DNA of 24,000 nt from Methanomassiliicoccales archaeon (GTDB taxonomy: Archaea > Thermoplasmatota > Thermoplasmata > RBG-16-68-12 > SOIM01), in the NCBI GenBank assembly GCA_004377185.1, contig SOIM01000011.1, positions 14,925 through 38,924 on the forward strand, in the 5' to 3' direction. Under the pieces are notes generated by a model. That model did no database searches. It saw nothing but the letters and a program-made list of their open reading frames with translations, and had not been told where the DNA came from. The stretch's first letter is position 1. Each line of letters opens with the position of its first letter. The translations under genes and the position numbers were made by a program. Below, piece after piece: positions 369-23,107 of the stretch.

Positions 369-3300
369 CTATTCTTCGGTCTCTTCCTCGGTCTCTTCCT
401 CGTCCGCCTTCCCCCTCTGCCTTCTGAAGCGGACAGATATCCCCAAATAGACGAGGCCTATCACGACGAAGATTGGCCCCCAGAGAAGGATTGGCCCCCA
501 TTCGATGGGTGCTCCGGTGACTGAAACTGCGTGAGGAGAGGTTTCGTTCCCAGAATACGCCACATTCCCCCAAGCATCCTGTGCTATGATGAAGTAGTGC
601 ATCTTTCCATCCACCTCAGGTAAGCTGACCTCGCACGCGAACTCATCAGTGAGGCCAACACGCTTCATTTCGAGCGGAGGATTGAAGTGAGAAACTCCAA
701 CCGGTTTGATGTAGAGCTTGACTTTGAAGATTCCCAAGTTGTCGGTCACGGTCGCGGTGAAGTTCACCAGGGAGCCAGCATTTGCGGATCTGATGACATT
801 ATGAGTAAGGGATGGGAGCGTATTGTCGACCACCATCAGGTCGTGTTTCCCGACTACAGGATTTCTGCCGATGTTGCCGAATACATCTCTGGCCACTATG
901 TAGTAGGACACGTATCCGATGGTAGGTTGGGCCGGGATGTGTGCCCTCCATTCGCCGCTGACAGAAGAGCCTGAGAACAGAACCATGTTCGCCTGGGAGA
1001 AACTGCTCTCCCCAATGTTGGTGTAAAAGAGGGTTGCGTATGCTATCGAATCGTTGTCAGATATTGTTGCCAGGATCTCTATGGGTTCATCCATGATTGG
1101 CATGCCTTCAGGTGGGTCGTGGAGAATGACAGGTGCCTCGGTTGTATGGAATTGACAATAGTGGGGCGATTGGAGAAAATTTCCAGACATGTCCTTTGCA
1201 CCGTTGATGGTGACATAATAGGTCGTGTTGTACTCCAAGGGCTGGTAAGGCGTGTAGGTCAGATTGGTCCAATCAACGTTCCAGGACCAGTCCCAACTGG
1301 CCTGAGGATCCATAGTGACTCTCGTAGTGGTCTCCATCTGCATGGGTTCGCTGAAGAGGACGCTTATGTCAGTATCCAAAGAAACGTTAATCGCTCCGTC
1401 CTGAGGGTAACAGCGTCGTACCTCGGGAGGTACTGTGTCAGCATCGGTGGTGAAGTAGATGGAATCGGACACGCCCCATTTCCTGCCATCCTTCCATACA
1501 ACGTAGGCATGCCCTAGGGAATCTAGTGCGATGTCAGGACGTTCTTCGTGATAGGGCCCAACCGCATCGTTCAACGGGAAGGGTTCGAAGACCAAGCTCC
1601 ATTCAGATCCATCCCCTCTGGGTAACACCTCAAACGTTTGGTTGATGATGCCGCCTGGTCCGACATGGCTTTCCGAGACTAACAGGGGTTCCCCTCCCTC
1701 ATAGGCACCAGTCGCGTTGGCATCGATGAAGAGAAGGTTGTCCTGGGCTGAGAAATCGGACAGCATTTTCTTCTCAGCGGATATGACCTGACCGTCATAG
1801 ACAAGAATGTCATACATGTCGAATCCGTCTGCATGGCCTCTTTCTATGGCCAAGTACATGCTATTGAAGGACACGTTGTGTTGCGAGGAAGCATCGTTGA
1901 TGAAACTGATGTTCAGCTTCTGTAGCTCCTCAACACTATCGAGCCCCATGGCGAAAAAATCCACACTCTCATAGACCTCCGTTCCACCCGTATCCACAAT
2001 TTGGAAGAAGGGCGTTTCACCTGCGAGAGACAACGACCAAGTGACATGGTTGCTGCCGTCGTACCCGCTGTCCGTTTTGTAAGCGAACTCCAACTCCACT
2101 GAGGATATCGGGTCTCCAATCCACAAACCCTCATTCTCGAGGTTCACATCCCGTGCAGTTGCCAAACCGAATGCCCCGACCACCATGCGCTGATGCTGTT
2201 CAACGTCATAGTAGAGGGAATCGTCATTTCTGAGGTCCCACCTGAAATAGGTGATGAAATTCCCGGTCGTGTTATCCTGTGGATGGACTGCAGTCGGTTT
2301 CACTCTGGGGTAACGGATGACGGGTGTATCCATTGCAATATCCTCGTCCATGTCCCATCTGAGGTTATCATTCATATCGGAATATCTGATGCGATGGCCT
2401 TCAAGATCCTCCCAGAGGTTGGCATATCCGGTCGCGACAATGGTATCAGGAGAATCCGAGCCGTTGAGGACTCCGGGATCAAGGACGCCATTCCCATTGT
2501 CAAGGATTACAGCCTCTGCGGAGTTGCGAAGGCCATTTAAGGGGCGATTGACGTCAAAGAAGAAGTTACCACCAAAACGCGAGGTCGCTGTGTAGAAGGT
2601 GTTCCCTCCGTCCTGTGATTTGGCGAGATATACGTTATAGTTGCCACCTCTGTCGTCCGTCCAGACCACGAAGATAGGACTCCCTGACTGGTTGACAGCA
2701 ATTGAAGCGCCATGATGGGTAATGTACGGAGATTCTCGATGGTAGAAGGGATCGTTGACCATGATGTTCGGTCCGAAATTGGAGCCATCTGAGGACTTCG
2801 CGAAGTAAATCCTTGGAGTGCCTAGCCTCTCATCCTGCCACACGACATAGACAACATCGTTCAAATCTATCGAAAGAGAAGGGTTCTCCTGCACAACTTC
2901 CCTAATGACATCATTCACAGGAACATTGGTTCCGAAGTCCTGCCCATTGTTTGTTGAGTTTGCAATGTACACATCGAAGTCGTCATCCAGGTACGAAGGT
3001 GGCATGAATCCGCTCCTTCCGTCACTCCACACGACATGAACATCCCCTGTGCTGTTAACGGCCACTTCTGGTGCTATTCGGTGGTTTATCAGACTGTCGC
3101 TCACCAGGACACTCGATTCGAAGCTCTCCCCGTCGTCAACAGATCTTGCCAGACGGATCTCCATCTCCTGGCTGGACCATGCAACATAGATTATGCCCGA
3201 GGCGGAATCGATGGCCATTGAAGGATATCTCTCGTTGTTCCCACTATCACTCACCAAGATGTTGGAATCGAAGGAATATCCGTCAGTCGACTTCGCGAAG

Positions 3301-3695
3301 AATACTCTGTGAGAATTGCTTCCGGCTCTCCCATCATCCCAAACCACGTACACGGTCCCGTTGTGCCCAACAACATCTGGGTATTGCTGATATGTACCAT
3401 CATCAATGGGGTTGTCATTCACCCGAACATCCAGAAGGAAGGACGTCCCTTCGTTACTGCTCTTTGAATAGTAGATGTCCATCCCCCCGTTCCTGCTGTC
3501 CTCCCACAAGATGTAGATGTCTCCATCATCGACCGCTATCGACGCATTGTTCCTCAAAGGGCCAGAACCGACGTCCCTGTCCACTCTGGTATTGGCCCTG
3601 AACTCCTCGGCTGTGACGTTTTGAACGGGAACCACGGATAAGCAAAGCTGAAACAGGAAAATAGTGCACACTGCCAGAATCGCAGTTCTCCTCAT
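369..3695 (-). CDS. Large secreted/cell-surface protein: signal peptide, six BNR/Asp-box blades, SbsA-type Ig-like (Big_5-like) domain, two tandem beta-sandwich repeats, C-terminal TM anchor with acidic tail
   Basis: The track ORF is 369..3722. I prefer the internal ATG at 3695, which gives a signal-like N-terminus (MRRTAILAVCTIFLFQLCLSVVPVQNVTA). There are six Asp-box-like motifs (SSNEGTSF, STDGYSF, SVDDGESF, STNNGQDF, SSDGSNF, SQDGGNTF), each preceded by a VVW.D.R-type strand. DTVPPEV...ISVLFSEPM matches an Ig-like domain. The C-terminus has a WGPILLWGPIFVVIGLVYLGISV helix followed by RFRRQRGKADEEETEEETEE. N-x-S/T sequons are numerous. Confidence 0.75.
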   Translation of the reverse strand: MRRTAILAVCTIFLFQLCLSVVPVQNVTAEEFRANTRVDRDVGSGPLRNNASIAVDDGDIYILWEDSRNGGMDIYYSKSSNEGTSFLLDVRVNDNPIDDGTYQQYPDVVGHNGTVYVVWDDGRAGSNSHRVFFAKSTDGYSFDSNILVSDSGNNERYPSMAIDSASGIIYVAWSSQEMEIRLARSVDDGESFESSVLVSDSLINHRIAPEVAVNSTGDVHVVWSDGRSGFMPPSYLDDDFDVYIANSTNNGQDFGTNVPVNDVIREVVQENPSLSIDLNDVVYVVWQDERLGTPRIYFAKSSDGSNFGPNIMVNDPFYHRESPYITHHGASIAVNQSGSPIFVVWTDDRGGNYNVYLAKSQDGGNTFYTATSRFGGNFFFDVNRPLNGLRNSAEAVILDNGNGVLDPGVLNGSDSPDTIVATGYANLWEDLEGHRIRYSDMNDNLRWDMDEDIAMDTPVIRYPRVKPTAVHPQDNTTGNFITYFRWDLRNDDSLYYDVEQHQRMVVGAFGLATARDVNLENEGLWIGDPISSVELEFAYKTDSGYDGSNHVTWSLSLAGETPFFQIVDTGGTEVYESVDFFAMGLDSVEELQKLNISFINDASSQHNVSFNSMYLAIERGHADGFDMYDILVYDGQVISAEKKMLSDFSAQDNLLFIDANATGAYEGGEPLLVSESHVGPGGIINQTFEVLPRGDGSEWSLVFEPFPLNDAVGPYHEERPDIALDSLGHAYVVWKDGRKWGVSDSIYFTTDADTVPPEVRRCYPQDGAINVSLDTDISVLFSEPMQMETTTRVTMDPQASWDWSWNVDWTNLTYTPYQPLEYNTTYYVTINGAKDMSGNFLQSPHYCQFHTTEAPVILHDPPEGMPIMDEPIEILATISDNDSIAYATLFYTNIGESSFSQANMVLFSGSSVSGEWRAHIPAQPTIGYVSYYIVARDVFGNIGRNPVVGKHDLMVVDNTLPSLTHNVIRSANAGSLVNFTATVTDNLGIFKVKLYIKPVGVSHFNPPLEMKRVGLTDEFACEVSLPEVDGKMHYFIIAQDAWGNVAYSGNETSPHAVSVTGAPIEWGPILLWGPIFVVIGLVYLGISVRFRRQRGKADEEETEEETEE

Positions 3696-3798
3696 TCGAA
3701 CGCCCACATATCTCCAAAACAATAACGAATCTGCTCGTATAAATCATTTTTCCGAACTTTGGGAAGCCTTATTAGGATTGATTTCATTTGTTCCGCGA

Positions 3799-7216: not shown

Positions 7217-7813
7217 TTGAAGAGCTTAGAAGCCCTCATAGAAAAGGCCTTGGAACTGAAGGAAAAGGGCTTGTCGGAAAAAGAGATCGGTGATGAGCTT
7301 CACTTATCTTTGAACACAGTCACGTGGTTGCTTGTCAAGGGTCTGAGAGGTGGGGCGCCCCCACCGGACGTGAAGATCGGATGGCGTTCGATAGGTGTGT
7401 ATGCCAACAGGATAGGTTTTGTTTCTGCAACAATGTCAGACATAATTCTGGAAGAAATGGAGAAGACGGGAGAAGACTTTGATTCGGTCTGCGGAATAGC
7501 GATAAACGGAATCCCGTATGCCACTTTCGTTTCGGAAGAGCTGGGGAAGGAGCTGGTTATATACCGACCCAGCGAGGCGAGACACAGAGGAGGAGGCTTG
7601 TTCAGTTCTAACTACGCAGGCGTGGAGGAGAAGAAGATTGTGATCGTTGATGATATTCTCAGCTCAGGAGACACGATAAAGGGAGCCATAGCCGACATAA
7701 CGGAGAGCGGAGGTTCGGCATTGCTGGCCGTGGTGATGGTCAATAAGACAGAGCACGATGATATCGACGGTGTTCGACTGAGAGCGATGGTCCGGGCTCG
7801 AGCGATCGCGTGA
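7217..7813 (+). CDS. Orotate phosphoribosyltransferase-like protein with N-terminal helix-turn-helix (probable regulator rather than PyrE enzyme)
   Basis: The gene starts with TTG, 6 nt after the Shine-Dalgarno GAGGTGA (7204-7210). The N-terminal GLSEKEIGDELHLSLNTVTWLL segment is HTH-like. The C-terminal PRTase domain has the PRPP loop KIVIVDDILSSGDTIKG. The stop lies 4 nt before lysK. Confidence 0.75.
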   Translation: MKSLEALIEKALELKEKGLSEKEIGDELHLSLNTVTWLLVKGLRGGAPPPDVKIGWRSIGVYANRIGFVSATMSDIILEEMEKTGEDFDSVCGIAINGIPYATFVSEELGKELVIYRPSEARHRGGGLFSSNYAGVEEKKIVIVDDILSSGDTIKGAIADITESGGSALLAVVMVNKTEHDDIDGVRLRAMVRARAIA

Positions 7814-7817
7814 GAGC

Positions 7818-9422
7818 ATGCACTGGTTTGACGAATTGTTACCTCGGGTGGAGAGTTTTCTAGGAGAGAAGAAGGACACGGTCATCTCAGCTGGCTTGTC
7901 AGTCTCGGGATTGCAGCATGTCGGTCGGCTCAGAGGTGAGGTCGTTCTGGCGAACGCTATCGCAGAGGGTCTGAGGAAGAGCGGAAGAAACGTCAAGCAG
8001 ATTCTCGTTCTCTACACCCAAGACTCCTGGAAAGGGAAGGACGGTCAGCTGGCTCAGTTCGGAGATGGAGGTGGAAAGGAGTACGTGGGCAGAAGGCTCA
8101 TCGATGTTCCGGACCCGAAAGGATGTCATGAGAACTGGGTGGACCATTACTGGAGAGACTTCGGAGATGTGCTGGAGGAATTCGCGACAAAGGTCGAGAT
8201 CACTTCCACCACGGAAGTCTACCAAACGGATGAGATGAGGAGGAACGTCCTGGAGTTGCTGGAGAAAGCAGAGAAGATAAGGGAGATAGTGAACAGATAC
8301 AGGGGAAGGATGAAGTATCCCGAGGGATGGATCCCATTCGAACCACTCTGCAAGAAGTGCATGAAGATAGGGAGTGCGGAAGCGCTGTCCGTCTCTGAAG
8401 ATGGACAGGTGAGCTACAAGTGTTCTTGCGGGGATGAAGGGGCATCCAGCATAGAAGAAGGGAAGCTGAACTGGAGGTTGGAATGGCCTTCCTTATGGAA
8501 AGTCCTCTCAGTGGACATCGAACCCTTTGGGAAGGACCACGCGACACCGGGGGGCTCGAGGGACAGCTGCAAGAACCTGGCCAAGAATGTCATGAGTCTT
8601 ACGCCTCCCTTTGGCATTGCATACGAATGGGTGGGGATGTCGAGAGAAGGGACGGACCTGGGTGACATGAGCAGCTCGGATTTCAAGGGGTTCACACCAA
8701 AGGAATGGTTGGAGTTCGGAGAACCACATGCTCTCAGATTCATCTACCTTCAAGCCAAACCGTCAAAGAGGATCGTTCTGGACCTGGCCAAGATGGACAC
8801 ATACCATGACCATTTGGACTCGGGTTACAGCAACTACTGGCAGGATGAGAAGGAGGAAGAGAGCGAGCTGAAATCAAGGACATACGACATATCCGCTGTG
8901 GACCGTGTTGCGAGAAAGGATATGTTCATTCTTCCATACAAGGAAGCTTCCTTGCTCACTCAGATATCCTCGGTGGAGGACAAGCTGCATTGGGTTGTCT
9001 CAAGGTTAACGGACACGGGCATACTCACGAGAGAGCTTGCCGAGGACGAAGAACAGTACCTTTCCAAGAGGATTGGTCTGGCCGATGCTTGGATCACGAA
9101 GTACGCGCCCGAAAGCTACCACGTGGAACTTCAGGAAGAACTGCCTGAGGATGTGAGGAGCGAATTGACGGAGGAGGATGTGAAGTCCTTGGCCATCTTC
9201 CGAGAACGGTTGGAAGGGGCGGATTGGAACGAGGACGCACTGAAGGAAACCATGATCCAGATGACAAAAATGGAAGACTTCCCAGTAAGCACGAAGAGGT
9301 TCTTCCGCAACCTGTACCTGGCACTTCTCGGAAAGGAGCAAGGCCCGAGAGCTGCGCCATTTCTTTCCATCCTGGAGAAGGACTTCGTCCTCGAGAGACT
9401 AGATGATGTTTCTCAGGAGTAG
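7818..9422 (+). CDS. lysK: Lysyl-tRNA synthetase, class I (archaeal type)
   Basis: The N-terminus is MHW..., as in class I LysRS. It has an SGLQHVGRLRGE (HIGH-region) segment, a CKKC...CSCG zinc knuckle, an MSSS (KMSKS-region) segment, and a length of 534 aa. Confidence 0.85.
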   Translation: MHWFDELLPRVESFLGEKKDTVISAGLSVSGLQHVGRLRGEVVLANAIAEGLRKSGRNVKQILVLYTQDSWKGKDGQLAQFGDGGGKEYVGRRLIDVPDPKGCHENWVDHYWRDFGDVLEEFATKVEITSTTEVYQTDEMRRNVLELLEKAEKIREIVNRYRGRMKYPEGWIPFEPLCKKCMKIGSAEALSVSEDGQVSYKCSCGDEGASSIEEGKLNWRLEWPSLWKVLSVDIEPFGKDHATPGGSRDSCKNLAKNVMSLTPPFGIAYEWVGMSREGTDLGDMSSSDFKGFTPKEWLEFGEPHALRFIYLQAKPSKRIVLDLAKMDTYHDHLDSGYSNYWQDEKEEESELKSRTYDISAVDRVARKDMFILPYKEASLLTQISSVEDKLHWVVSRLTDTGILTRELAEDEEQYLSKRIGLADAWITKYAPESYHVELQEELPEDVRSELTEEDVKSLAIFRERLEGADWNEDALKETMIQMTKMEDFPVSTKRFFRNLYLALLGKEQGPRAAPFLSILEKDFVLERLDDVSQE

Positions 9423-9485
9423 GAGAACACCAGCAAAGGATAAATAGAAACTTTCGAATCTCCACATCTACATAATAGATACAGC

Positions 9486-9556
9486 AGCCCCGTGGTGTAG
9501 AGGTAGCATCAGAGACTCTGGATCTCTTGGCGCCGGTTCGAATCCGGCCGGGGCTA
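9486..9556 (+). tRNA. tRNA-Gln (anticodon CUG), archaeal type, no encoded CCA
   Basis: I folded the cloverleaf by hand. The acceptor stem is AGCCCCG/CGGGGCT (A1-U72) and the D arm is GTGT-AGAGGTA-GCAT. The anticodon arm is AGAGA-CTCTGGA-TCTCT, which places CTG at positions 34-36. The T arm is GCCGG-TTCGAAT-CCGGC and the discriminator is A73. Confidence 0.95.
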
Positions 9557-9576
9557 TCCGCCCTTACATCACCCAA

Positions 9577-9595
9577 ATGCTTAATATTTAAGCAT
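9577..9595 (+). promoter_or_regulatory. Perfect 19-nt palindrome containing a TATA-like core, upstream of glnS
   Basis: ATGCTTAA-TAT-TTAAGCAT has 8-nt arms that are exact reverse complements. It lies 21 nt after the tRNA-Gln(CUG) 3' end and 34 nt before the glnS GTG. Confidence 0.4.
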
Positions 9596-9628
9596 ACACT
9601 AAACCTGGGTCATCAAAGGTGACACGCT

Positions 9629-11317
9629 GTGGTTTCAACAGCAACTCCATCAAAGGATTTCATACGTCAAATCATAGACGAAGACAACAGGACAGGCAAG
9701 TATGGAGGGGGAGTGCACACTAGATTCCCGCCAGAGCCAAACGGCTTCCTACACATTGGGCATGCCAAAGCCATATGCGTCAACTTCGGTATTGCCGAAG
9801 AATACGGAGGTAAGTACAACCTTCGCTTCGACGACACAAATCCACTGAAGGAGGAGGACATCTACATCAAGTCCATAATGGATGACATCAAGTGGCTGGG
9901 GTTCGACTGGGAGGACCGGCTCTACTACGGTTCGGATTACTTCGATCAGATGTACGACTACGCGGTCGACCTCGTGAAGAAGGGTAAGGCATACGTGGAC
10001 GATCTGTCCGCCGAAGAAATCAAGGAACTTCGAGGCAACGTGACGACACCTGGAAAGGACAGCCCTTACAGGGAGCGAAGCGTCGAAGAGAACCTGGACC
10101 TGTTCAACAGAATGAAGGCCGGAGAGTTCGCGGATGGAGAAAAGGTCCTTCGCGCCAAGATAGACATGGCCCATCCCAACATGAACATGAGGGACCCGAT
10201 TATGTACAGGATACTTCACGCAACACATCACAACACTGGGGACAAATGGTGCATCTACCCGATGTACGACTGGGCGCATGGACTGGAGGATTCCATCGAG
10301 GGAATCACACATTCGCTCTGTTCACTCGAGTTCGAGAACCACAGACCCTTGTACGATTGGTTCCTAATAGAGCTCGGAGTGTACAGACCGATACAGATAG
10401 AGTTCGCCAGGCTTAACCTGACCTACACGGTCATGAGCAAGAGGAAGTTGCTTGAGCTTGTAAAAGGCGGACTTGTAAGCGGTTGGGATGACCCGAGACT
10501 TCCCACGATAAGAGGGATGAAGAAACGGGGATACTCCACTGCATCCATAAGGAACTTCTGCGACCGCATCGGAATAGCGAAGGTGAACAGCACTGTGGAC
10601 ATCGAGTTCCTGGAGCACTGTGTCAGGGATGACCTCAACAAGACATCTCCAAGGTTCATGGGCGTGCTGAATCCCCTGAAAATGGTGATCGAGAACTATC
10701 CTGAGGACAAGGTAGAGGAGTTCGAGGCAATCAACAATCCCGAGGACGAGAGTGCTGGAACACGCAAGGTTCCGTTCTCCCGAGTGTTGTACATAGAGCG
10801 GGACGATTTCATGGAAGACCCTCCCAAGAAGTTCTACCGACTGGCACCGGGCAGGGAGGTCAGGTTCAGATATGCCTACTTCGTCACATGCAAGGAAGCC
10901 GTCAAAGAGAACGGCGAGATTGTTGAGCTCAGGTGTACCATCGATCCTGAGACGCACGGGGGGAATGCACCAGATGGACGCAAGGTGAAATCCACGCTGC
11001 ACTGGGTATCAGAGTCTCATGCCCTGGATGCAGAGGTCCGCCTGTATGATAGACTGTTCACTGTACCTGATCCGCTCGGACAAAAGGATGCTGACTTCAA
11101 GGACCTCATCAACCCGGATTCCCTCAGAATACTCACCTCTTGCAAGGTTGAGCCGGCCGTACGTGACCTGAAGGCCTTCGACAGGTTCCAGTTCGAACGC
11201 CTGGGCTACTTCTGCGTGGACCCTGACACCACTGAGGAGAACATTGTCCTCAACCGGACCGTCGAACTGCGGGACCCGTGGGCCAAGATACAGAAACAAC
11301 AGCAGAGGAAGAAATAG
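9629..11317 (+). CDS. glnS: Glutaminyl-tRNA synthetase (bacterial-type GlnRS)
   Basis: The gene starts with GTG, 6 nt after AGGTGA. The product is collinear with E. coli GlnS as I recall it: [13 protein letters not shown] (FLHIGHAKA), [34 protein letters not shown] (VMSKRK), and the C-terminal anticodon-binding barrels through FQFERLGYF and RDPWAK. Confidence 0.92.
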
Positions 11318-11404
11318 ACCAGAGAGCCATGTCTTTCCATCGATTTCGCTTGTGCAAAGAATAGTTATTTGAAGGTGACTGCTCTTTGGAAGAATGACAA
11401 TCGC

Positions 11405-11475
11405 AGCCCCGTGGTGTAGAGGTAGCATCAGAGACTTTGGATCTCTTGGCACCGGTTCAAATCCGGTCGGGGCTA
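11405..11475 (+). tRNA. tRNA-Gln (anticodon UUG), archaeal type, no encoded CCA
   Basis: It has the same cloverleaf as 9486-9556 and differs at 4 positions. These are C34->T (anticodon TTG), the compensatory change of pair 49-65 from G-C to A-T, and T-loop position 57 G->A. Confidence 0.95.
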
Positions 11476-11540
11476 TTCTTTCTCGGTGAGCAACTCTTAA
11501 TAATTCGATTGCCATTACCGATTCGCCCGGAGGGGAGGTT

Positions 11541-18758: not shown

Positions 18759-19331
18759 GTGCCCCTCACCAAGAAGGAAAGAGCTCTTCGAAAGATCGCT
18801 TCCGAGGTCAGACGCTGCAAGAAATGTCCCCTCTATAAAGAAAGGACAAATGCAGTTCCCGGTGAGGGCCCAGCAAACGCCAGAATGTTCTTCGTCGGTG
18901 AAGCTCCAGGAAAAGCGGAGGATGAAAAAGGAAAGCCCTTTGTGGGATCAGCCGGAAAGATACTCGACGAAGCTTTGGAAAAAGCAGGACTTCAGAGATC
19001 CAAAGTGTTCATCACAAGCATTCTGAGGTGCAGACCGCCAAACAACAGGAATCCAAAGGCCGGAGAGATGTCGGCCTGCTGGCCGCACCTTGAGAGGTAC
19101 GTCGACACCATCTCGCCTCGAGTATTGGTAGCATTGGGCCGCTATGGATTCAAAGGGCTCACAGGCAAGACCGCAAGGATTGGAGAGATGAGAAACAAGA
19201 AGCTAGAATACAAAGGAATACCTATCGTTGCAACGTACCATCCCGCAGCGGTGCTTTATAACCGCAAGCTCATCAAGAAAATCGTATACGATTTCAGAAA
19301 GGCCAGAAGGCTATCCGAGCAGAGCGCTTAG
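18759..19331 (+). CDS. udg: Uracil-DNA glycosylase, family 4 (Fe-S type)
   Basis: The gene starts with GTG after a GGTGAT Shine-Dalgarno. The motifs are CKKCPL, FVGEAPGKAEDEKGKPFVGSAG, LRCRPP, CWPHL and ATYHPAAVLY. Confidence 0.85.
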   Translation: MPLTKKERALRKIASEVRRCKKCPLYKERTNAVPGEGPANARMFFVGEAPGKAEDEKGKPFVGSAGKILDEALEKAGLQRSKVFITSILRCRPPNNRNPKAGEMSACWPHLERYVDTISPRVLVALGRYGFKGLTGKTARIGEMRNKKLEYKGIPIVATYHPAAVLYNRKLIKKIVYDFRKARRLSEQSA

Positions 19332-19473
19332 AGAAAGATCGGACCTGGACTTCCAGGAGAGTGTTGTGTACATTCCCGGGCCATGCTTCCGTCTTCTTCA
19401 CATTATCAAAGATGATAATGAGAGACCAAAATATCTTATACCACTGGCAATCTCGAATCACCGAGGTGGGAAC

Positions 19474-21087
19474 TTGAAAGATTCCACGGGAATACCAGAG
19501 GAACTCGTGAATTTCTTCAAAGGACCGGGCGGACACTCTCTGATTGTGAAAGGACTTGCGGGGACCGGGAAGACGACATTTGCCCTTCAGTTGGCTGAAG
19601 AGCTGGACAATGTGGCGAAGAGCCACTATATTTCGGTAAGGGTATCCGATGAGTCGCTGTACAATCAATTCCCCTGGCTGAGGAAGAAGTTGGAAGAGAC
19701 AGGGAAGTTGAAGATGGTCAAGGGCTATGCCAAGACGCTGAGCTCCAATTTCGTTCATAGGGAAAGCGCGACGGACGTGGCCCTCGAGGTCAGAATCCGG
19801 ACGGCCCAACAGCTCCTCAGGTCCATTGGAGAAGCATTGAAGGACAGTAGCAAGGTCGACCGTAGCGAACTCCAAAGACTGGAAGGGAGGATAGAGATGG
19901 GGGAGGAGAGTGTGGAGGAGCCTTTCGGCGCACTTGGGGAGGGATCGGTTCTAGACGACACCATCATCTTCGATTTAGGTTCAGACCTCCCTGAGATTGA
20001 TCTTGCGTACGACATGGTTGAGCAGGCGCTACCTGACAAGACGCTTGTGCTGATAGACAGCATTGACGCTCTCAGCGAGAGATACGGAGTTCATGCTTCC
20101 AAGCTCATCAACACCCTCCAGAAGGACTTGGTGGAACATTCGAATGCGGACGTGCTGTATGTCCTGGAGACGGGCAAGGACAACAGACTGGACTATCTTG
20201 GGGATGGTGTGGTTTCCTTCGTGGACGAGGAATACAACGGAAGGAGACTCAGGGTTCTCAGGATAGACAAGCTCAGAGGGACCGAGATAAAACAGCACAA
20301 ATACATCTACACACTGAAGGGCGGGCGCTTAGGAACATTCCTTTTCAAGAGGGAAGAACAGCCCAGCGAGCCAAAACACTGGAAGGTTGTGAAAGACATC
20401 TCTGAGGATGTGGTTTCCACAGGGAACGAAGAGCTTGATCAGCTTGTGGGAGGGATAAGAAAAGGTTCCATCATTGCGATAGAGGTGGGAGGAAACGTCC
20501 CGGGATTCTACGTGGACCATATCAAGACGGGGCTGATATCCAACTTCACCTGCCAGAACAGGGGAGTGGCTCTGATGCCGTCAAAGAGAGCTCCTGCCGA
20601 GACGATAGAAGCGGAAATCATACCTTACATCGGCGAGGACACATTCGAGAACAATGTACGGGTGTACGAGGCGACTGAATTCGGCTCTCTCGAAGGCTCC
20701 AAGAACACCATCCAGCTTGAAGGTCGCGATCTGGCCAACGAGATGAAATGGAACACCGTTGAATACAACCTTCAGAGTGCAAATCATCCCTTCATGTCGC
20801 TCATAGCCTTCGACACGCTGGAGTCAACCTATGACGAAGACGTGATAGAGAAGCTTACACCACACCTGACCTCCATAAGAAGGAACAAGGACATCTTCGT
20901 GGGCCTTCTCATCCCGACTGACGAATCCACCGACAAGCTGGCCAACGTCGCTCACATTCATTTGAAGATCGAGAACCTTGACGGCTCGGTTGTCCTATTC
21001 GGGGAGAAACCGCACACCGAGCTCTTCGCTTTGTCCTTTGACGTGTCTAAAGGATATCCCAAGGCAAGGCTTACGTCCATAGTCTAG
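19474..21087 (+). CDS. Two-domain KaiC/GvpD/RAD55-family RecA-superfamily ATPase (intact N-terminal P-loop domain, degenerate C-terminal domain)
   Basis: The track ORF starts at 19228 inside udg. I prefer TTG 19474, which lies 5 nt after the Shine-Dalgarno GAGGTG (19463-68) and about 40 nt after the TATA-like AAAATATCTTATA (19428-40). GTG 19366 is an alternative start. Domain 1 has STGIPEELVNFF..., Walker A GLAGTGKTT, Walker B LVLIDSIDAL and RVLRIDKLRGT. Domain 2 repeats the STGNEELDQLVGG entry motif, but the P-loop position reads GGNVPGFY. Confidence 0.7.
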   Translation: MKDSTGIPEELVNFFKGPGGHSLIVKGLAGTGKTTFALQLAEELDNVAKSHYISVRVSDESLYNQFPWLRKKLEETGKLKMVKGYAKTLSSNFVHRESATDVALEVRIRTAQQLLRSIGEALKDSSKVDRSELQRLEGRIEMGEESVEEPFGALGEGSVLDDTIIFDLGSDLPEIDLAYDMVEQALPDKTLVLIDSIDALSERYGVHASKLINTLQKDLVEHSNADVLYVLETGKDNRLDYLGDGVVSFVDEEYNGRRLRVLRIDKLRGTEIKQHKYIYTLKGGRLGTFLFKREEQPSEPKHWKVVKDISEDVVSTGNEELDQLVGGIRKGSIIAIEVGGNVPGFYVDHIKTGLISNFTCQNRGVALMPSKRAPAETIEAEIIPYIGEDTFENNVRVYEATEFGSLEGSKNTIQLEGRDLANEMKWNTVEYNLQSANHPFMSLIAFDTLESTYDEDVIEKLTPHLTSIRRNKDIFVGLLIPTDESTDKLANVAHIHLKIENLDGSVVLFGEKPHTELFALSFDVSKGYPKARLTSIV

Positions 21088-21131
21088 AAGAGCAAAAAGA
21101 GTATCAGCCATGATAATTGGATGAAAAGTGG

Positions 21132-21139
21132 TTTAAAAA
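21132..21139 (+). promoter_or_regulatory. Archaeal TATA box (TTTAAAAA) for wHTH paralog A
   Basis: It matches the TTTAWATA-type consensus and lies about 24 nt upstream of ATG 21160. Confidence 0.4.
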
Positions 21140-21159
21140 CGCGGATGGTAGAAGGTATA

Positions 21160-21501
21160 ATGCGAGAGAAAGAGATATCAAGACTACTAACTGACGACTA
21201 CGCAGAACGCATTCTCGTCGCAACATACTACTCCGCCAAATCGGCACAGGAAATCAGCGATAGGTACGACGTACCAATAGCCGCGTGCTACCGCAAAATC
21301 CACGAATTGGAAGATGCGGGCCTGCTGAGATGCTACAGGATTGTCACGACACCGAAAGGGAAGAGCATGAAGCTTTATCGCTCGCAGTTGAAGAAGGCCT
21401 GCCTTATGTATGAAGATGGAATTTTCAAGGTCAGGCTGGAGTTCAAGCACGAGGAGCCGATAAACAACACATGGATACAGTTGAACACTCCTCGCAGCTA
21501 G
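21160..21501 (+). CDS. Small winged-helix (ArsR-like) transcription regulator, paralog A
   Basis: The track ORF starts at 21121. ATG 21160 (MREKEISRLLTDDY...) lies about 24 nt after the consensus TATA box TTTAAAAA (21132-39) and aligns residue for residue with the paralog's N-terminus. The HTH segment is SAQEISDRYDVPIAACYRKIHELEDAGLL. Confidence 0.7.
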   Translation: MREKEISRLLTDDYAERILVATYYSAKSAQEISDRYDVPIAACYRKIHELEDAGLLRCYRIVTTPKGKSMKLYRSQLKKACLMYEDGIFKVRLEFKHEEPINNTWIQLNTPRS

Positions 21502-21648: not shown

Positions 21649-22473
21649 TCAACGAGAGAGTTCAGTCCCGCATGAAGGACAGAACGAAAAGCCGTCAACC
21701 CTCCCACCACATTTTGGACAGAAATTCATCGCTGTACCGCTGATGTGGGCGCCCAATGGTTGCGGGGCCGAAGGGGCAATTGCGGGCCTTGGAAGGGGTA
21801 ACTCTCCCAGATGAGGGAGTGAGAGAAAGAGGCCTATCGTTGTGAGTATTGCTGCAACAAAAAGGAGAATCCATCCAACAGGTATGAAGAAGGCGAAGAT
21901 CAGAGACATGATGAAGCTGCCAGATATGATGTAGATCACGCCCGATGCCATGAAAATCGACGGTGACGCAAGGGATTTCCTGGCCAAAATGTGGGAAACT
22001 CCGATTATCACTACCCCAACTCCCAGGATTATTGACGCGACCCACACGAATAAGGGATTGAGGTAATAGTTGTAGTCGTAGTAGTAGCCCCAGTAGTCTG
22101 TCTGGACAGAGAGGACCATCAGGGCAATGAACAAGACCGAGACAATTATGGAGAATATGAAGGTGGCCATCCCCATCCCGGACTTGTGGTGTACGTAGTA
22201 GCCCGCATGGGCAAATGAGTGGACAATCATCCCTACGAACACGATGATGGAGGACACGATAATGGCAATTGGATAACCAATGCTGCGATACCAATAGAAG
22301 CCGGAAGTCACGAATGAGACCGTGAAAGCCATCGCTCCGACTCCAAGCAAGATTGCGCCGATAGCACCAACGATAATGAGATTCTTTCCCTTCACATGTT
22401 CTCTGGCCGGAATTCCGGCCGGTGGAACCACCTGTTGACCCAACTCAGGAGAGTAACCCGAAGCATCCTGCAT
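21649..22473 (-). CDS. Six-TM membrane protein with Pro-rich linker and C-terminal double-CxxC zinc ribbon
   Basis: A strong Shine-Dalgarno GAGGAGGTGA lies directly upstream of ATG 22473. I read six hydrophobic helices by eye. The terminus is ...PLPRPAIAPSAPQP...MNFCPKCGGRVDGFSFCPSCGTELSR. Confidence 0.7.
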   Translation of the reverse strand: MQDASGYSPELGQQVVPPAGIPAREHVKGKNLIIVGAIGAILLGVGAMAFTVSFVTSGFYWYRSIGYPIAIIVSSIIVFVGMIVHSFAHAGYYVHHKSGMGMATFIFSIIVSVLFIALMVLSVQTDYWGYYYDYNYYLNPLFVWVASIILGVGVVIIGVSHILARKSLASPSIFMASGVIYIISGSFIMSLIFAFFIPVGWILLFVAAILTTIGLFLSLPHLGELPLPRPAIAPSAPQPLGAHISGTAMNFCPKCGGRVDGFSFCPSCGTELSR

Positions 22474-22744
22474 CTATTCACCTCCTCGCAACCCACTTCC
22501 TCTGCCGAGCAGAACGATTCCTAGATACATAGAGTTATAGGGTCAGAGTCTGGACAATCGTGAGGGGCGCATTGATTGAGGGGAAGGCTCTGAGGAAAAC
22601 AGCTCCAGCAAGACCTACCGGATGTCGCTGTTAGCGCTGGGAGGTCCTCCGATAACGAAGAGGTGAACTATAAGTAGTAGGAACCTTTACGCGTGTTTTA
22701 CTCTACAAAAGCTGTCTCGCAATGTGTTAGGGTGGGGGAATACC

Positions 22745-23107
22745 ATGGACGCACTGGAAGCCTCTCAGATGCTGACGGATGAGTATTCTGCTAAAATTCT
22801 TTTGGCAACATTCAAGAGAAAGATGAGTGCCCAAGAAATCAGTAACAAGTATGGCATCCCGATAGCGGCTTGCTACAGGAAGATCAAGACGCTGGAAGAT
22901 GCTGGGTTAATCGAGTGCATCGACCGAGTGCTCACCCCCAAAGGCAAGAGAAAGAACCTGTACCTCTCGCGACTGAAGACCGCGTTCATATTCTTTGAAA
23001 ACGGAAAATTGAGGGCGAGATTCCACCTTTCCACAGGAGTCACCAAGGACTTCGGTGGGGACTGGAACGGACTTGAATTCTTGAAAGTAGTAAATCCTCT
23101 TGAGTGA
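22745..23107 (+). CDS. Small winged-helix (ArsR-like) transcription regulator, paralog B
   Basis: The track ORF starts at 22724. ATG 22745 (MDALEASQMLTDEY...) gives the same 9-residue lead before LTD as paralog A. In my manual alignment, about 49 of 93 aligned positions are identical to 21160..21501, including SAQEIS..Y..PIAACYRKI..LEDAGL and TPKGK..LY.S.LK.A. Confidence 0.7.
   Translation: MDALEASQMLTDEYSAKILLATFKRKMSAQEISNKYGIPIAACYRKIKTLEDAGLIECIDRVLTPKGKRKNLYLSRLKTAFIFFENGKLRARFHLSTGVTKDFGGDWNGLEFLKVVNPLE

Follow-up and report, generated by a model that had tools for sequence, protein, structure and literature searches.

A bacterial-type glutaminyl-tRNA synthetase gene bracketed by two archaeal-type tRNA-Gln genes in a clade of Thermoplasmata-type archaea

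In archaea, Gln-tRNA-Gln is described as the product of an indirect route that involves a glutamyl-tRNA synthetase of the non-discriminating type (ND-GluRS) and the amidotransferase GatDE. According to reviews and surveys published between 2016 and 2022, glutaminyl-tRNA synthetase (GlnRS) is absent from archaeal genomes, owing to the diverged archaeal tRNA-Gln (PMC5388404, PMC7373986, PMC9499178), and 'almost all archaea' are reported to rely on the indirect route (PMC8762117). Archaeal tRNA-Gln has been characterised by A1-U72 and A73 (PMC9499178, citing Marck & Grosjean 2002) and by C12-G23, compared to G12-C23 in eukaryotic tRNA-Gln (PMC9499178); a review from 2022 assigns A73 to archaea and G73 to bacteria. 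The identity set of the E. coli GlnRS comprises U1-A72, G2-C71, G3-C70, G10, U35, G36 and G73 (PMC9976931). Here we analyse a stretch of 24,000 nucleotides (hereafter the window) of contig SOIM01000011.1 from an assembly labelled Methanomassiliicoccales archaeon, in which a bacterial-type GlnRS gene (glnS) is bracketed by the genes of both tRNA-Gln isoacceptors. An earlier reading of the window from its letters alone (the sequence-only reading) had pointed out this cassette and set it against the textbook view that archaea lack GlnRS, a view that agrees with the reviews. We consider it likely that the cassette encodes a functional, Gln-specific bacterial-type GlnRS that was acquired by a Thermoplasmata-type ancestor and directly charges both flanking, archaeal-derived tRNA-Gln.

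Several described systems can be compared to this locus. The window enzyme has the same domains and length as the GlnRS of E. coli and P. aeruginosa (PDB 1GTR/1QTQ, 5BNZ), with about 58-60% identity and the same Gln-binding and anticodon-reading residues. The tRNAs of the two systems share G2-C71, G10, U35, G36, a weak first pair, a length of 71 nt, a 7-nt D-loop and a 4-nt variable loop. Unlike in E. coli and P. aeruginosa, the gene belongs to an archaeal host and lies between the genes of both isoacceptors, the enzyme has Asn235, Val136 and Lys130, and the tRNAs miss the full E. coli identity set, as they have A1-U72 instead of U1-A72, C3-G70 instead of G3-C70 and, in the window, A73 instead of G73. 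The archaeal route of ND-GluRS and GatDE (PDB 2D6F, 3AII) yields the same product on archaeal-type tRNA with A1-U72, whereas the window cassette is predicted to charge its tRNAs directly, in one step, by a class Ib synthetase. The Deinococcus-type GlnRS/YqeY fusion (PRK14703, PDB 2HZ7) provides the best-scoring protein model, but the window protein lacks the YqeY tRNA-binding domain. In the pylT-pylS cassettes, a synthetase gene likewise lies beside its cognate tRNA gene and the linkage is kept across genomes. This likeness does not go beyond the arrangement. The window tRNAs stem from the host and are canonical isoacceptors that serve a standard amino acid, not orthogonal suppressors.

Some bacterial glnS loci (L041, L111, L122, L160 and others) also have one tRNA-Gln(CUG) gene 69-182 nt upstream on the same strand. 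These tRNAs are of the bacterial type, with U1-A72, G3-C70, G73 and an encoded CCA, and in no bacterial locus examined was a UUG isoacceptor found on the opposite side of glnS. Furthermore, there are two bacterial sets (L111, L122, L124, L160, L162, L166 and L169, and the group L094-L117) in which an identical tRNA-Gln(CUG) keeps a fixed distance to glnS, in one case on the upstream side (69-182 nt) and in the other on the downstream side (about 411-550 nt). Thus, the linkage of glnS and tRNA-Gln(CUG) recurs in some bacterial lineages as well.

The window protein is clearly assigned to GlnRS. It reaches 711.8 bits on the NCBIfam glnS model TIGR00440 (cutoff 425.8) and fails both the archaeal gltX model TIGR00463 (357.3 bits, cutoff 401.75) and the bacterial gltX model (77 bits, cutoff 290). 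According to Pfam, it contains the class Ic catalytic domain PF00749 with its Rossmann fold (residues 29-337, E = 3.6e-107) and the beta-barrel anticodon-binding domains PF03950 and PF20974; the signature motifs LHIGHAK (HIGH) and VMSKRK (KMSKS) are present, and the eukaryotic N-terminal domain is absent. A search against solved structures returned the GlnRS of P. aeruginosa (704 bits), E. coli (687), D. radiodurans (549), human (482) and yeast (405), and lower scores for eukaryotic GluRS (289) and archaeal GluRS (184). We mapped residues in E. coli numbering through the alignment from this search. The Gln-binding and catalytic residues R30, D66, T68, Y211, C229, F233 and Q255 are shared without change by the window protein and all 120 relatives described below, as are the anticodon readers R341, R402, R410, R412, Q517, E519 and R520. 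Their Gln-selecting, catalytic and anticodon-reading roles are taken from published studies of the E. coli enzyme and presumably hold here.

The best NCBIfam model is that of the GlnRS/YqeY fusion (870.5 bits, cutoff 681), which is matched at positions 11-566 of 769. Pfam detects no YqeY domain (GatB_Yqey) in the window protein, which ends at residue 562. The name 'glutamine--tRNA ligase/YqeY domain fusion protein', given by the NCBI annotation pipeline PGAP to these proteins of 560-565 aa (the window protein and its relatives P0003, P0011, P0038, P0067 and P0115), is thus a misnomer.

A homologue search retrieved at least 120 protein clusters that are 77-87% identical to the window protein, and four closed genomes of 1.9-5.2 Mb are among these relatives. 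When genomes were scanned with the GlnRS protein, the matches listed were all bacterial GlnRS, from many phyla and with 61-71% identity, and did not include the archaeal genomes; these bacterial sequences served as the outgroup. In neighbour-joining (NJ) trees, the 120 relatives are monophyletic with respect to 74 bacterial GlnRS and include no bacterium, and their clade lies among bacterial GlnRS. To group 1, as we call the part of the archaeal clade that contains the window, a metagenome scan with a clade-biased pattern added a deeper archaeal group (group 2; L105, L113, L120, L161 and others). With the metagenome loci included, the archaeal groups and one bacterial contig, L159, form one clade in 78/100 NJ bootstraps, and the next sister group (L133, L148, L142) is bacterial, with DnaX and RecR. 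The simplest reading of these trees would be one old transfer from a bacterium to an archaeon, followed by mostly vertical descent. Archaeal glnS occurs in genomes of 28% to 58% GC and matches its host in GC content, which suggests long inheritance since the acquisition. Contig L159 (5969-9596) has 65% GC and carries a bacterial gltX directly upstream of a glnS whose product is 73% identical to the window protein. It could represent a back-transfer or the closest donor lineage.

The two window tRNAs have A1-U72, G2-C71, C3-G70, G10, U35, G36, G37 and A73. The CUG copy has no encoded CCA, and the UUG copy has the same architecture. They are direct repeats with 94% identity and differ at four positions: the anticodon base 34, a compensatory change of G49-C65 to A49-U65, and position 57 in the T-loop. 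Their D-stem consists of G10-U25, U11-A24, G12-C23 and U13-G22, so that the C12-G23 cited for archaea is not found. Among 38 tRNA-Gln linked to archaeal glnS, the first pair is always weak (A-U in 31, G·U in 7), C3-G70 and the 4-nt variable loop occur in 38/38, and position 73 carries G in 24 of them and A in the other 14. The tRNAs with A73 belong to the window's subclade, to the basal group or to copies with a long D-loop that lie beside G73 copies (L084, L090, L128). The sequence-only reading had taken A1-U72 and A73 as the archaeal hallmark; both are indeed present in the two window tRNAs, but A73 is the minority state in the clade. In most of the clade, the tRNAs thus appear to have been adjusted to the bacterial enzyme by a change from A73 to G73. 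We also considered that the tRNAs were co-transferred with glnS from bacteria. This is not favoured, as archaeal-like sequence is seen in the acceptor stem, at bases 8-9 and in the D-stem, and the tRNA core has 74% identity to archaeal tRNA-Gln with a long D-loop compared to 66% identity to bacterial tRNA-Gln. The stems and the core identity instead indicate that the tRNAs are host-derived.

The arrangement of the cassette is conserved. Among non-redundant group-1 loci with enough flanking sequence, 16/20 have a tRNA-Gln(CUG) on the strand of glnS and 4-73 nt upstream of it, and 16/21 have a tRNA-Gln 36-252 nt downstream. In 13 group-1 loci, glnS is bracketed on both sides, and these loci cover four different neighbourhoods. 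In CP070798.1, CP070739.1 and CP070751.1, the neighbouring genes are entirely different and tRNA-Gln still adjoins glnS. Both gene order and tRNA linkage thus recur in related genomes, where the sequence-only reading had suggested to look for them. The order of a phosphoribosyltransferase (PRTase) gene, the class I lysyl-tRNA synthetase (LysRS) gene and glnS is found in L081, L084, L085 and L087 and in the deep-branching L105 and L113. This PRTase-LysRS pair directly upstream of glnS spans the deepest splits of the clade and can serve as a synteny anchor for the state before insertion in relatives that lack GlnRS.

Further tRNA genes and tRNA-like sequences were observed at these loci. A tRNA-Glu(UUC) often lies further downstream in group-1 loci. 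ARAGORN calls of tRNA-Arg(tcg) and tRNA-Stop(tta) in L135 and L153 (downstream of glnS) and in L081 (3150-3238) look like intron-containing archaeal tRNAs; the L135 and L153 genes can be read as those of a tRNA-Glu(UUC) interrupted by an intron after position 37. In L084 (CP070751.1, 8700-9480), hairpins made of tRNA-Gln acceptor-stem halves lie around and between two duplicated tRNA-Gln genes. Examples are AGCCCCGTGGTA...AAGGGGCTA and CAGCCCC...CCGGGGCTG, which repeat together with the tRNA genes. Duplication or integration might have left these hairpins behind, or they might be repeats that derive from tRNA.

The genomic context of the cassette is archaeal. The window is part of contig Ga0247412_1559761 (64.8 kb) of JGI metagenome 3300022542. 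In the window, its neighbours encode class I LysRS, PurP, a DTD2-type D-aminoacyl-tRNA deacylase, a GfcR-like PRTase, Tpt1, NrdJ and PolX. Extending the contig by 10 kb adds FEN1 and PyrBI just beyond the window, and neither gatDE nor gltX nor another tRNA-Gln gene occurs in this extension. The gene order of the window recurs in the closed 1.99-Mb genome CP070767.1, the 790-kb scaffold ZHAO22-1_SAMN13740702 scaffold_1, several metagenome-assembled genomes (MAGs) and an independent Logan assembly. NCBI labels the relatives as Thermoplasmata, Thermoplasmatota, Methanomassiliicoccales or Methanobacteriota archaeon.

How the enzyme might recognise the acceptor end of these tRNAs was analysed on the enzyme side. 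At the E. coli positions Asp235, Leu136 and Arg130, the window enzyme has Asn, Val and Lys; we take Asp235 to be the residue that reads G3-C70 in E. coli GlnRS, and PDB holds the mutants 1QRS, 1QRT and 1QRU as distinct sequences. Asp235 occurs together with G3-C70 in 5/5 bacterial loci with a neighbouring tRNA-Gln, and 2/2 Bacteroidota loci combine Val or Ile at position 235 with U3 or C3 (a U-A or C-G pair 3-70) and A73. The nearest bacterial relatives of the archaeal enzyme (Planctomycetota, Sumerlaeota, Hydrogenedentota) have N, A or I at position 235. As these relatives lack Asp235, a tolerance of the donor-type enzyme at pair 3-70 probably predates the transfer. The E. coli identity set of tRNA-Gln is not universal among bacteria. 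Thus, the contrast to E. coli drawn in the sequence-only reading holds for A1-U72, C3-G70 and A73 but was overstated, since Bacteroidota tRNA-Gln also combine a base other than G3 with A73 and the nearest bacterial GlnRS do without Asp235. A change from Asp235 to Asn as an archaeal adaptation to C3-G70 was considered and rejected: Asn is present in 83/120 archaeal sequences, but the closest relatives of the window have Asp and 15/74 bacteria have Asn. Only six substitutions mark the archaeal GlnRS as a clade, none of them at a known acceptor-stem contact. PDB holds the mutants 1QRS, 1QRT and 1QRU as distinct sequences.

The features of the cassette are listed in Table 1. ARAGORN and the open reading frame agree with the cassette as given by the sequence-only reading, including spacers of 72 nt between tRNA(CUG) and glnS and of 87 nt between glnS and tRNA(UUG). 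Likewise, ARAGORN and Rfam confirm its description of two 71-nt tRNAs that carry the anticodons CUG and UUG and differ at four positions. ARAGORN finds exactly two tRNA genes in the whole window, and the gathering score of the Rfam tRNA model is 29.

Table 1. Coordinates of the cassette and of adjoining features in the window
Feature	Position	Strand	Support
tRNA-Gln(CUG)	9486-9556	+	ARAGORN; Rfam RF00005 62.2 bits, 71/71 positions
glnS, bacterial-type GlnRS, 562 aa, GTG start	9629-11317	+	NCBIfam TIGR00440, Pfam
tRNA-Gln(UUG)	11405-11475	+	ARAGORN; Rfam RF00005 63.2 bits, 71/71 positions
AAAGGATAAATAG, like a TFB recognition element (BRE) and TATA box, putative promoter of the tRNA(CUG)(-glnS) unit	9435-9447	+	alignment
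CTTAATATTT (also as CTTAATATT), TATA-like, about 40 nt before the glnS start, within the 72-nt spacer	9580-9589	+	inferred
GGTGA, Shine-Dalgarno-like, 6 nt upstream of the GTG start	9618-9622	+	read from the sequence; kept in L081 and L085
AAAGAATAGTTATTTG, BRE/TATA-like, putative separate promoter of tRNA-Gln(UUG)	11356-11371	+	alignment
TTCTTTCTC, T-rich, directly downstream of tRNA-Gln(UUG), putative archaeal oligo-T terminator	11476-11484	+	
Class I LysRS, upstream neighbour and archaeal marker, outside the cassette proper	7818-9422	+	TIGR00467 lysS_arch 321.7 bits (cutoff 147.55)
GfcR-like PRTase, just upstream of class I LysRS	7217-7813		

The putative signals are partly conserved among relatives. 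The BRE/TATA-like AAAGGATAAATAG, which lies about 40 nt upstream of where the mature tRNA-Gln(CUG) begins, is unchanged in the window, L081, L085 and L087 while its flanks vary. Similarly, AAAGAATAGTTATTTG, about 35-50 nt upstream of tRNA-Gln(UUG), is kept in the window, L081 and L085 and partly in L087. The richness in T after tRNA-Gln(UUG) is also kept in the alignment with relatives, and no such tract follows tRNA-Gln(CUG). L087 and L135 have only 4 nt between tRNA(CUG) and glnS, and L153, L123 and L155 have 17-21 nt. As such short gaps leave no room for a promoter, tRNA-Gln(CUG) and glnS probably share one transcript, from which glnS would be freed by tRNA processing. The TATA-like CTTAATATTT is mostly kept in the window, L081 and L085 and is absent in L087, where the gap between the tRNA and the ATG is 4 nt; it is a possible glnS-specific promoter in the window's subclade.

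Additional genes were noted elsewhere in the window. A predicted surface protein of 1117 aa (369-3722, minus strand) combines many short 'YVVW.D.R' repeats and a Big_5 Ig-like domain with a C-terminal transmembrane helix and an acidic tail, and it occurs at the same position in L085 and L087. Further downstream, a GvpD/KaiC-like ATPase with a double P-loop (19228-21087) is followed by two paralogous small HTH_20 regulators (21121-21501 and 22724-23107; MxxxLTDxYxxxILxATxxxxxSAQEIS...), which flank a zinc-ribbon membrane protein (21649-22473, minus strand).

Our proposal builds on the identity of the gene, the conservation of its residues, its archaeal context, the conservation of the cassette and the features of the tRNAs, all of which are directly observed. 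An ancestor within Thermoplasmata-type archaea would have taken up glnS from bacteria, and the gene would have been inherited over a long time since. GlnRS would charge the CUG and UUG isoacceptors directly with glutamine: the unchanged anticodon pocket would read U35, G36 and C/U34, and the weak first pair (A1-U72, or G1·U72 in relatives) would then open as in the E. coli complex, with an enzyme that was probably lax at pair 3-70 from the start. On the tRNA side, most of the clade would have exchanged A73 for the bacterial-type G73, with the window's subclade still at A73. Expression of tRNA-Gln(CUG) and glnS would start at the tRNA promoter and yield one transcript that is parted by tRNA processing; tRNA-Gln(UUG) would have its own promoter and T-rich stop.

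Some points weigh against this proposal. We infer enzyme activity and the use of both tRNAs as substrates from gene linkage and residue conservation, and the linkage is not obligatory, as L145/L125 and L102 have no flanking tRNA. A comparison of residues within the clade revealed no enzyme residue that tracks the split between A73 and G73, and the polarity of the change from A73 to G73 is read from a weakly supported NJ tree. In the NJ analysis, L159 falls inside or beside the archaeal clade and the deep nodes are weak, so that a single transfer and its direction are unproven. Lastly, the promoters and the terminator were assigned by eye.

Other explanations can be weighed against the same observations. 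It is very improbable that the enzyme is a GluRS/GlxRS-like protein or a non-translational paralogue. GlnRS is homologous to archaeal and eukaryotic GluRS, and the archaeal gltX model still scores 357 bits on the window protein, yet this lies below the cutoff whereas the glnS cutoff is passed, bacterial GlnRS structures score far above archaeal GluRS, and the Gln-specific R30, Y211 and Q255 are unchanged. The flanking genes, moreover, include tRNA-Gln and not tRNA-Glu alone. The protein is thus a true GlnRS and not a GluRS, in agreement with the sequence-only reading. A bacterial contig, or a chimera of a bacterial glnS with archaeal DNA, is next to inconceivable. What might suggest it is that the nearest relatives outside the clade are bacterial among the matches listed, and that one relative (L090, JBMCVV010000159.1) is labelled as a 'Petrotogales bacterium' MAG. 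However, the recurrence of the gene order in independent assemblies (the closed genome, the scaffold, the MAGs and Logan) refutes a chimera, the flanking tRNAs are archaeal-type, and GC content is flat, at about 0.51-0.53 over glnS and its neighbours with no step at glnS. The 'Petrotogales' contig itself has the same neighbours as the archaeal CP070798.1 (RTC-CinA-tRNA-Gln-glnS) and carries archaeal-type tRNAs; it is probably an archaeal contig that was mis-binned into a bacterial MAG. The contig of the window is thus archaeal and not chimeric, as its archaeal neighbours also indicate. The cassette could furthermore be a mobile unit that spreads among archaeal genomes, either through recombination of its tRNA repeats or with the help of an integrative element that targets tRNA genes. 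This would account for its presence in at least four different neighbourhoods, and both the near-identical direct repeats and the tRNA-fragment-like hairpins between the duplicated tRNA-Gln genes of L084 would be in line with it. Nevertheless, we regard mobility as improbable: the window shows neither an integrase nor a transposase beside the cassette, GC content is fully host-matched, and the order PRTase-LysRS-glnS is common to group 1 (window, L081, L084) and group 2 (L105, L113), which fits vertical descent plus rearrangement. For the excision or insertion through tRNA repeats that the sequence-only reading had raised, no evidence was found.

The relation to the indirect route is less clear-cut. 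Both pathways could operate side by side, with ND-GluRS and GatDE serving tRNA-Gln with a long D-loop and A73 and GlnRS serving the compact set that adjoins its gene. This arrangement would fit L084, which has two copies with G73 upstream and, downstream, one with A73 and a 10-nt D-loop, and L090 and L128, which each have A73 and G73 copies of the UUG isoacceptor; that A73 and G73 sets are found together at all three is a hint that some lineages use both pathways. In addition, A1-U72, which published work cites as a signature compatible with GatDE, is kept in 31/38 tRNAs. However, bacterial GlnRS also needs a weak pair 1-72, so that this retention is not specific to GatDE, seven tRNAs have G1·U72, and the window's subclade shows a single compact A73 pair at the locus. 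We thus think dual pathways rather unlikely for the clade. A tblastn search of the window and of the 2.3 Mb of loci analysed here matched only a bacterial GatB and neither gatD nor gatE; the GatD query was of approximate sequence, and the M. thermautotrophicus GatE query agreed with PDB 2D6F chain C at 618/619 residues. Alternatively, direct charging by GlnRS might have become the only route. The tRNAs with G1·U72 and G73 hint at a release from GatDE constraints. Tentatively, and with the balance tilted slightly against it, the clade, or at least its members with G73 and/or G1·U72, may have dropped GatDE. They would then be the first archaea with direct charging alone, and the identity of their tRNA-Gln would have changed, from A73 to G73 and with a compact D-loop, so as both to fit the bacterial enzyme and to escape the archaeal GluRS. 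If true, this would be a natural experiment on how the 'archaeal tRNA-Gln barrier' to the acquisition of GlnRS can be crossed. Tumbula et al. reportedly proposed in 2000 that archaeal tRNA-Gln forms such a barrier.

Archaeal glnS genes are present in GenBank as automatic annotations. Full-text literature searches for archaeal GlnRS, Thermoplasmat*, GatDE and the accession CP070767 returned no description of an archaeal GlnRS or of this clade. The sequence-only reading held that the finding would be routine if the arrangement were common and described; it is common in sequence databases, but a description was not found in the literature. The cassette thus appears to be a real and conserved, yet undescribed, archaeal unit for direct glutaminylation. 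In terms of its sequence, it combines a known enzyme family in an unexpected domain of life with an altered identity set and a conserved tRNA-synthetase-tRNA arrangement.

The absence of GlnRS is treated as a defining archaeal trait in textbooks and reviews, to which a large and long-established clade with this gene would be a direct counter-example. The matched natural pairs of enzyme and tRNA (A73 or G73, A1-U72 or G1·U72) make the old barrier hypothesis testable against GlnRS, archaeal GluRS and GatDE. Furthermore, the cassette bears on how horizontally acquired synthetases settle in a new host, here beside, and probably co-transcribed with, the genes of their substrate tRNAs, and on whether archaea can lose the indirect pathway.

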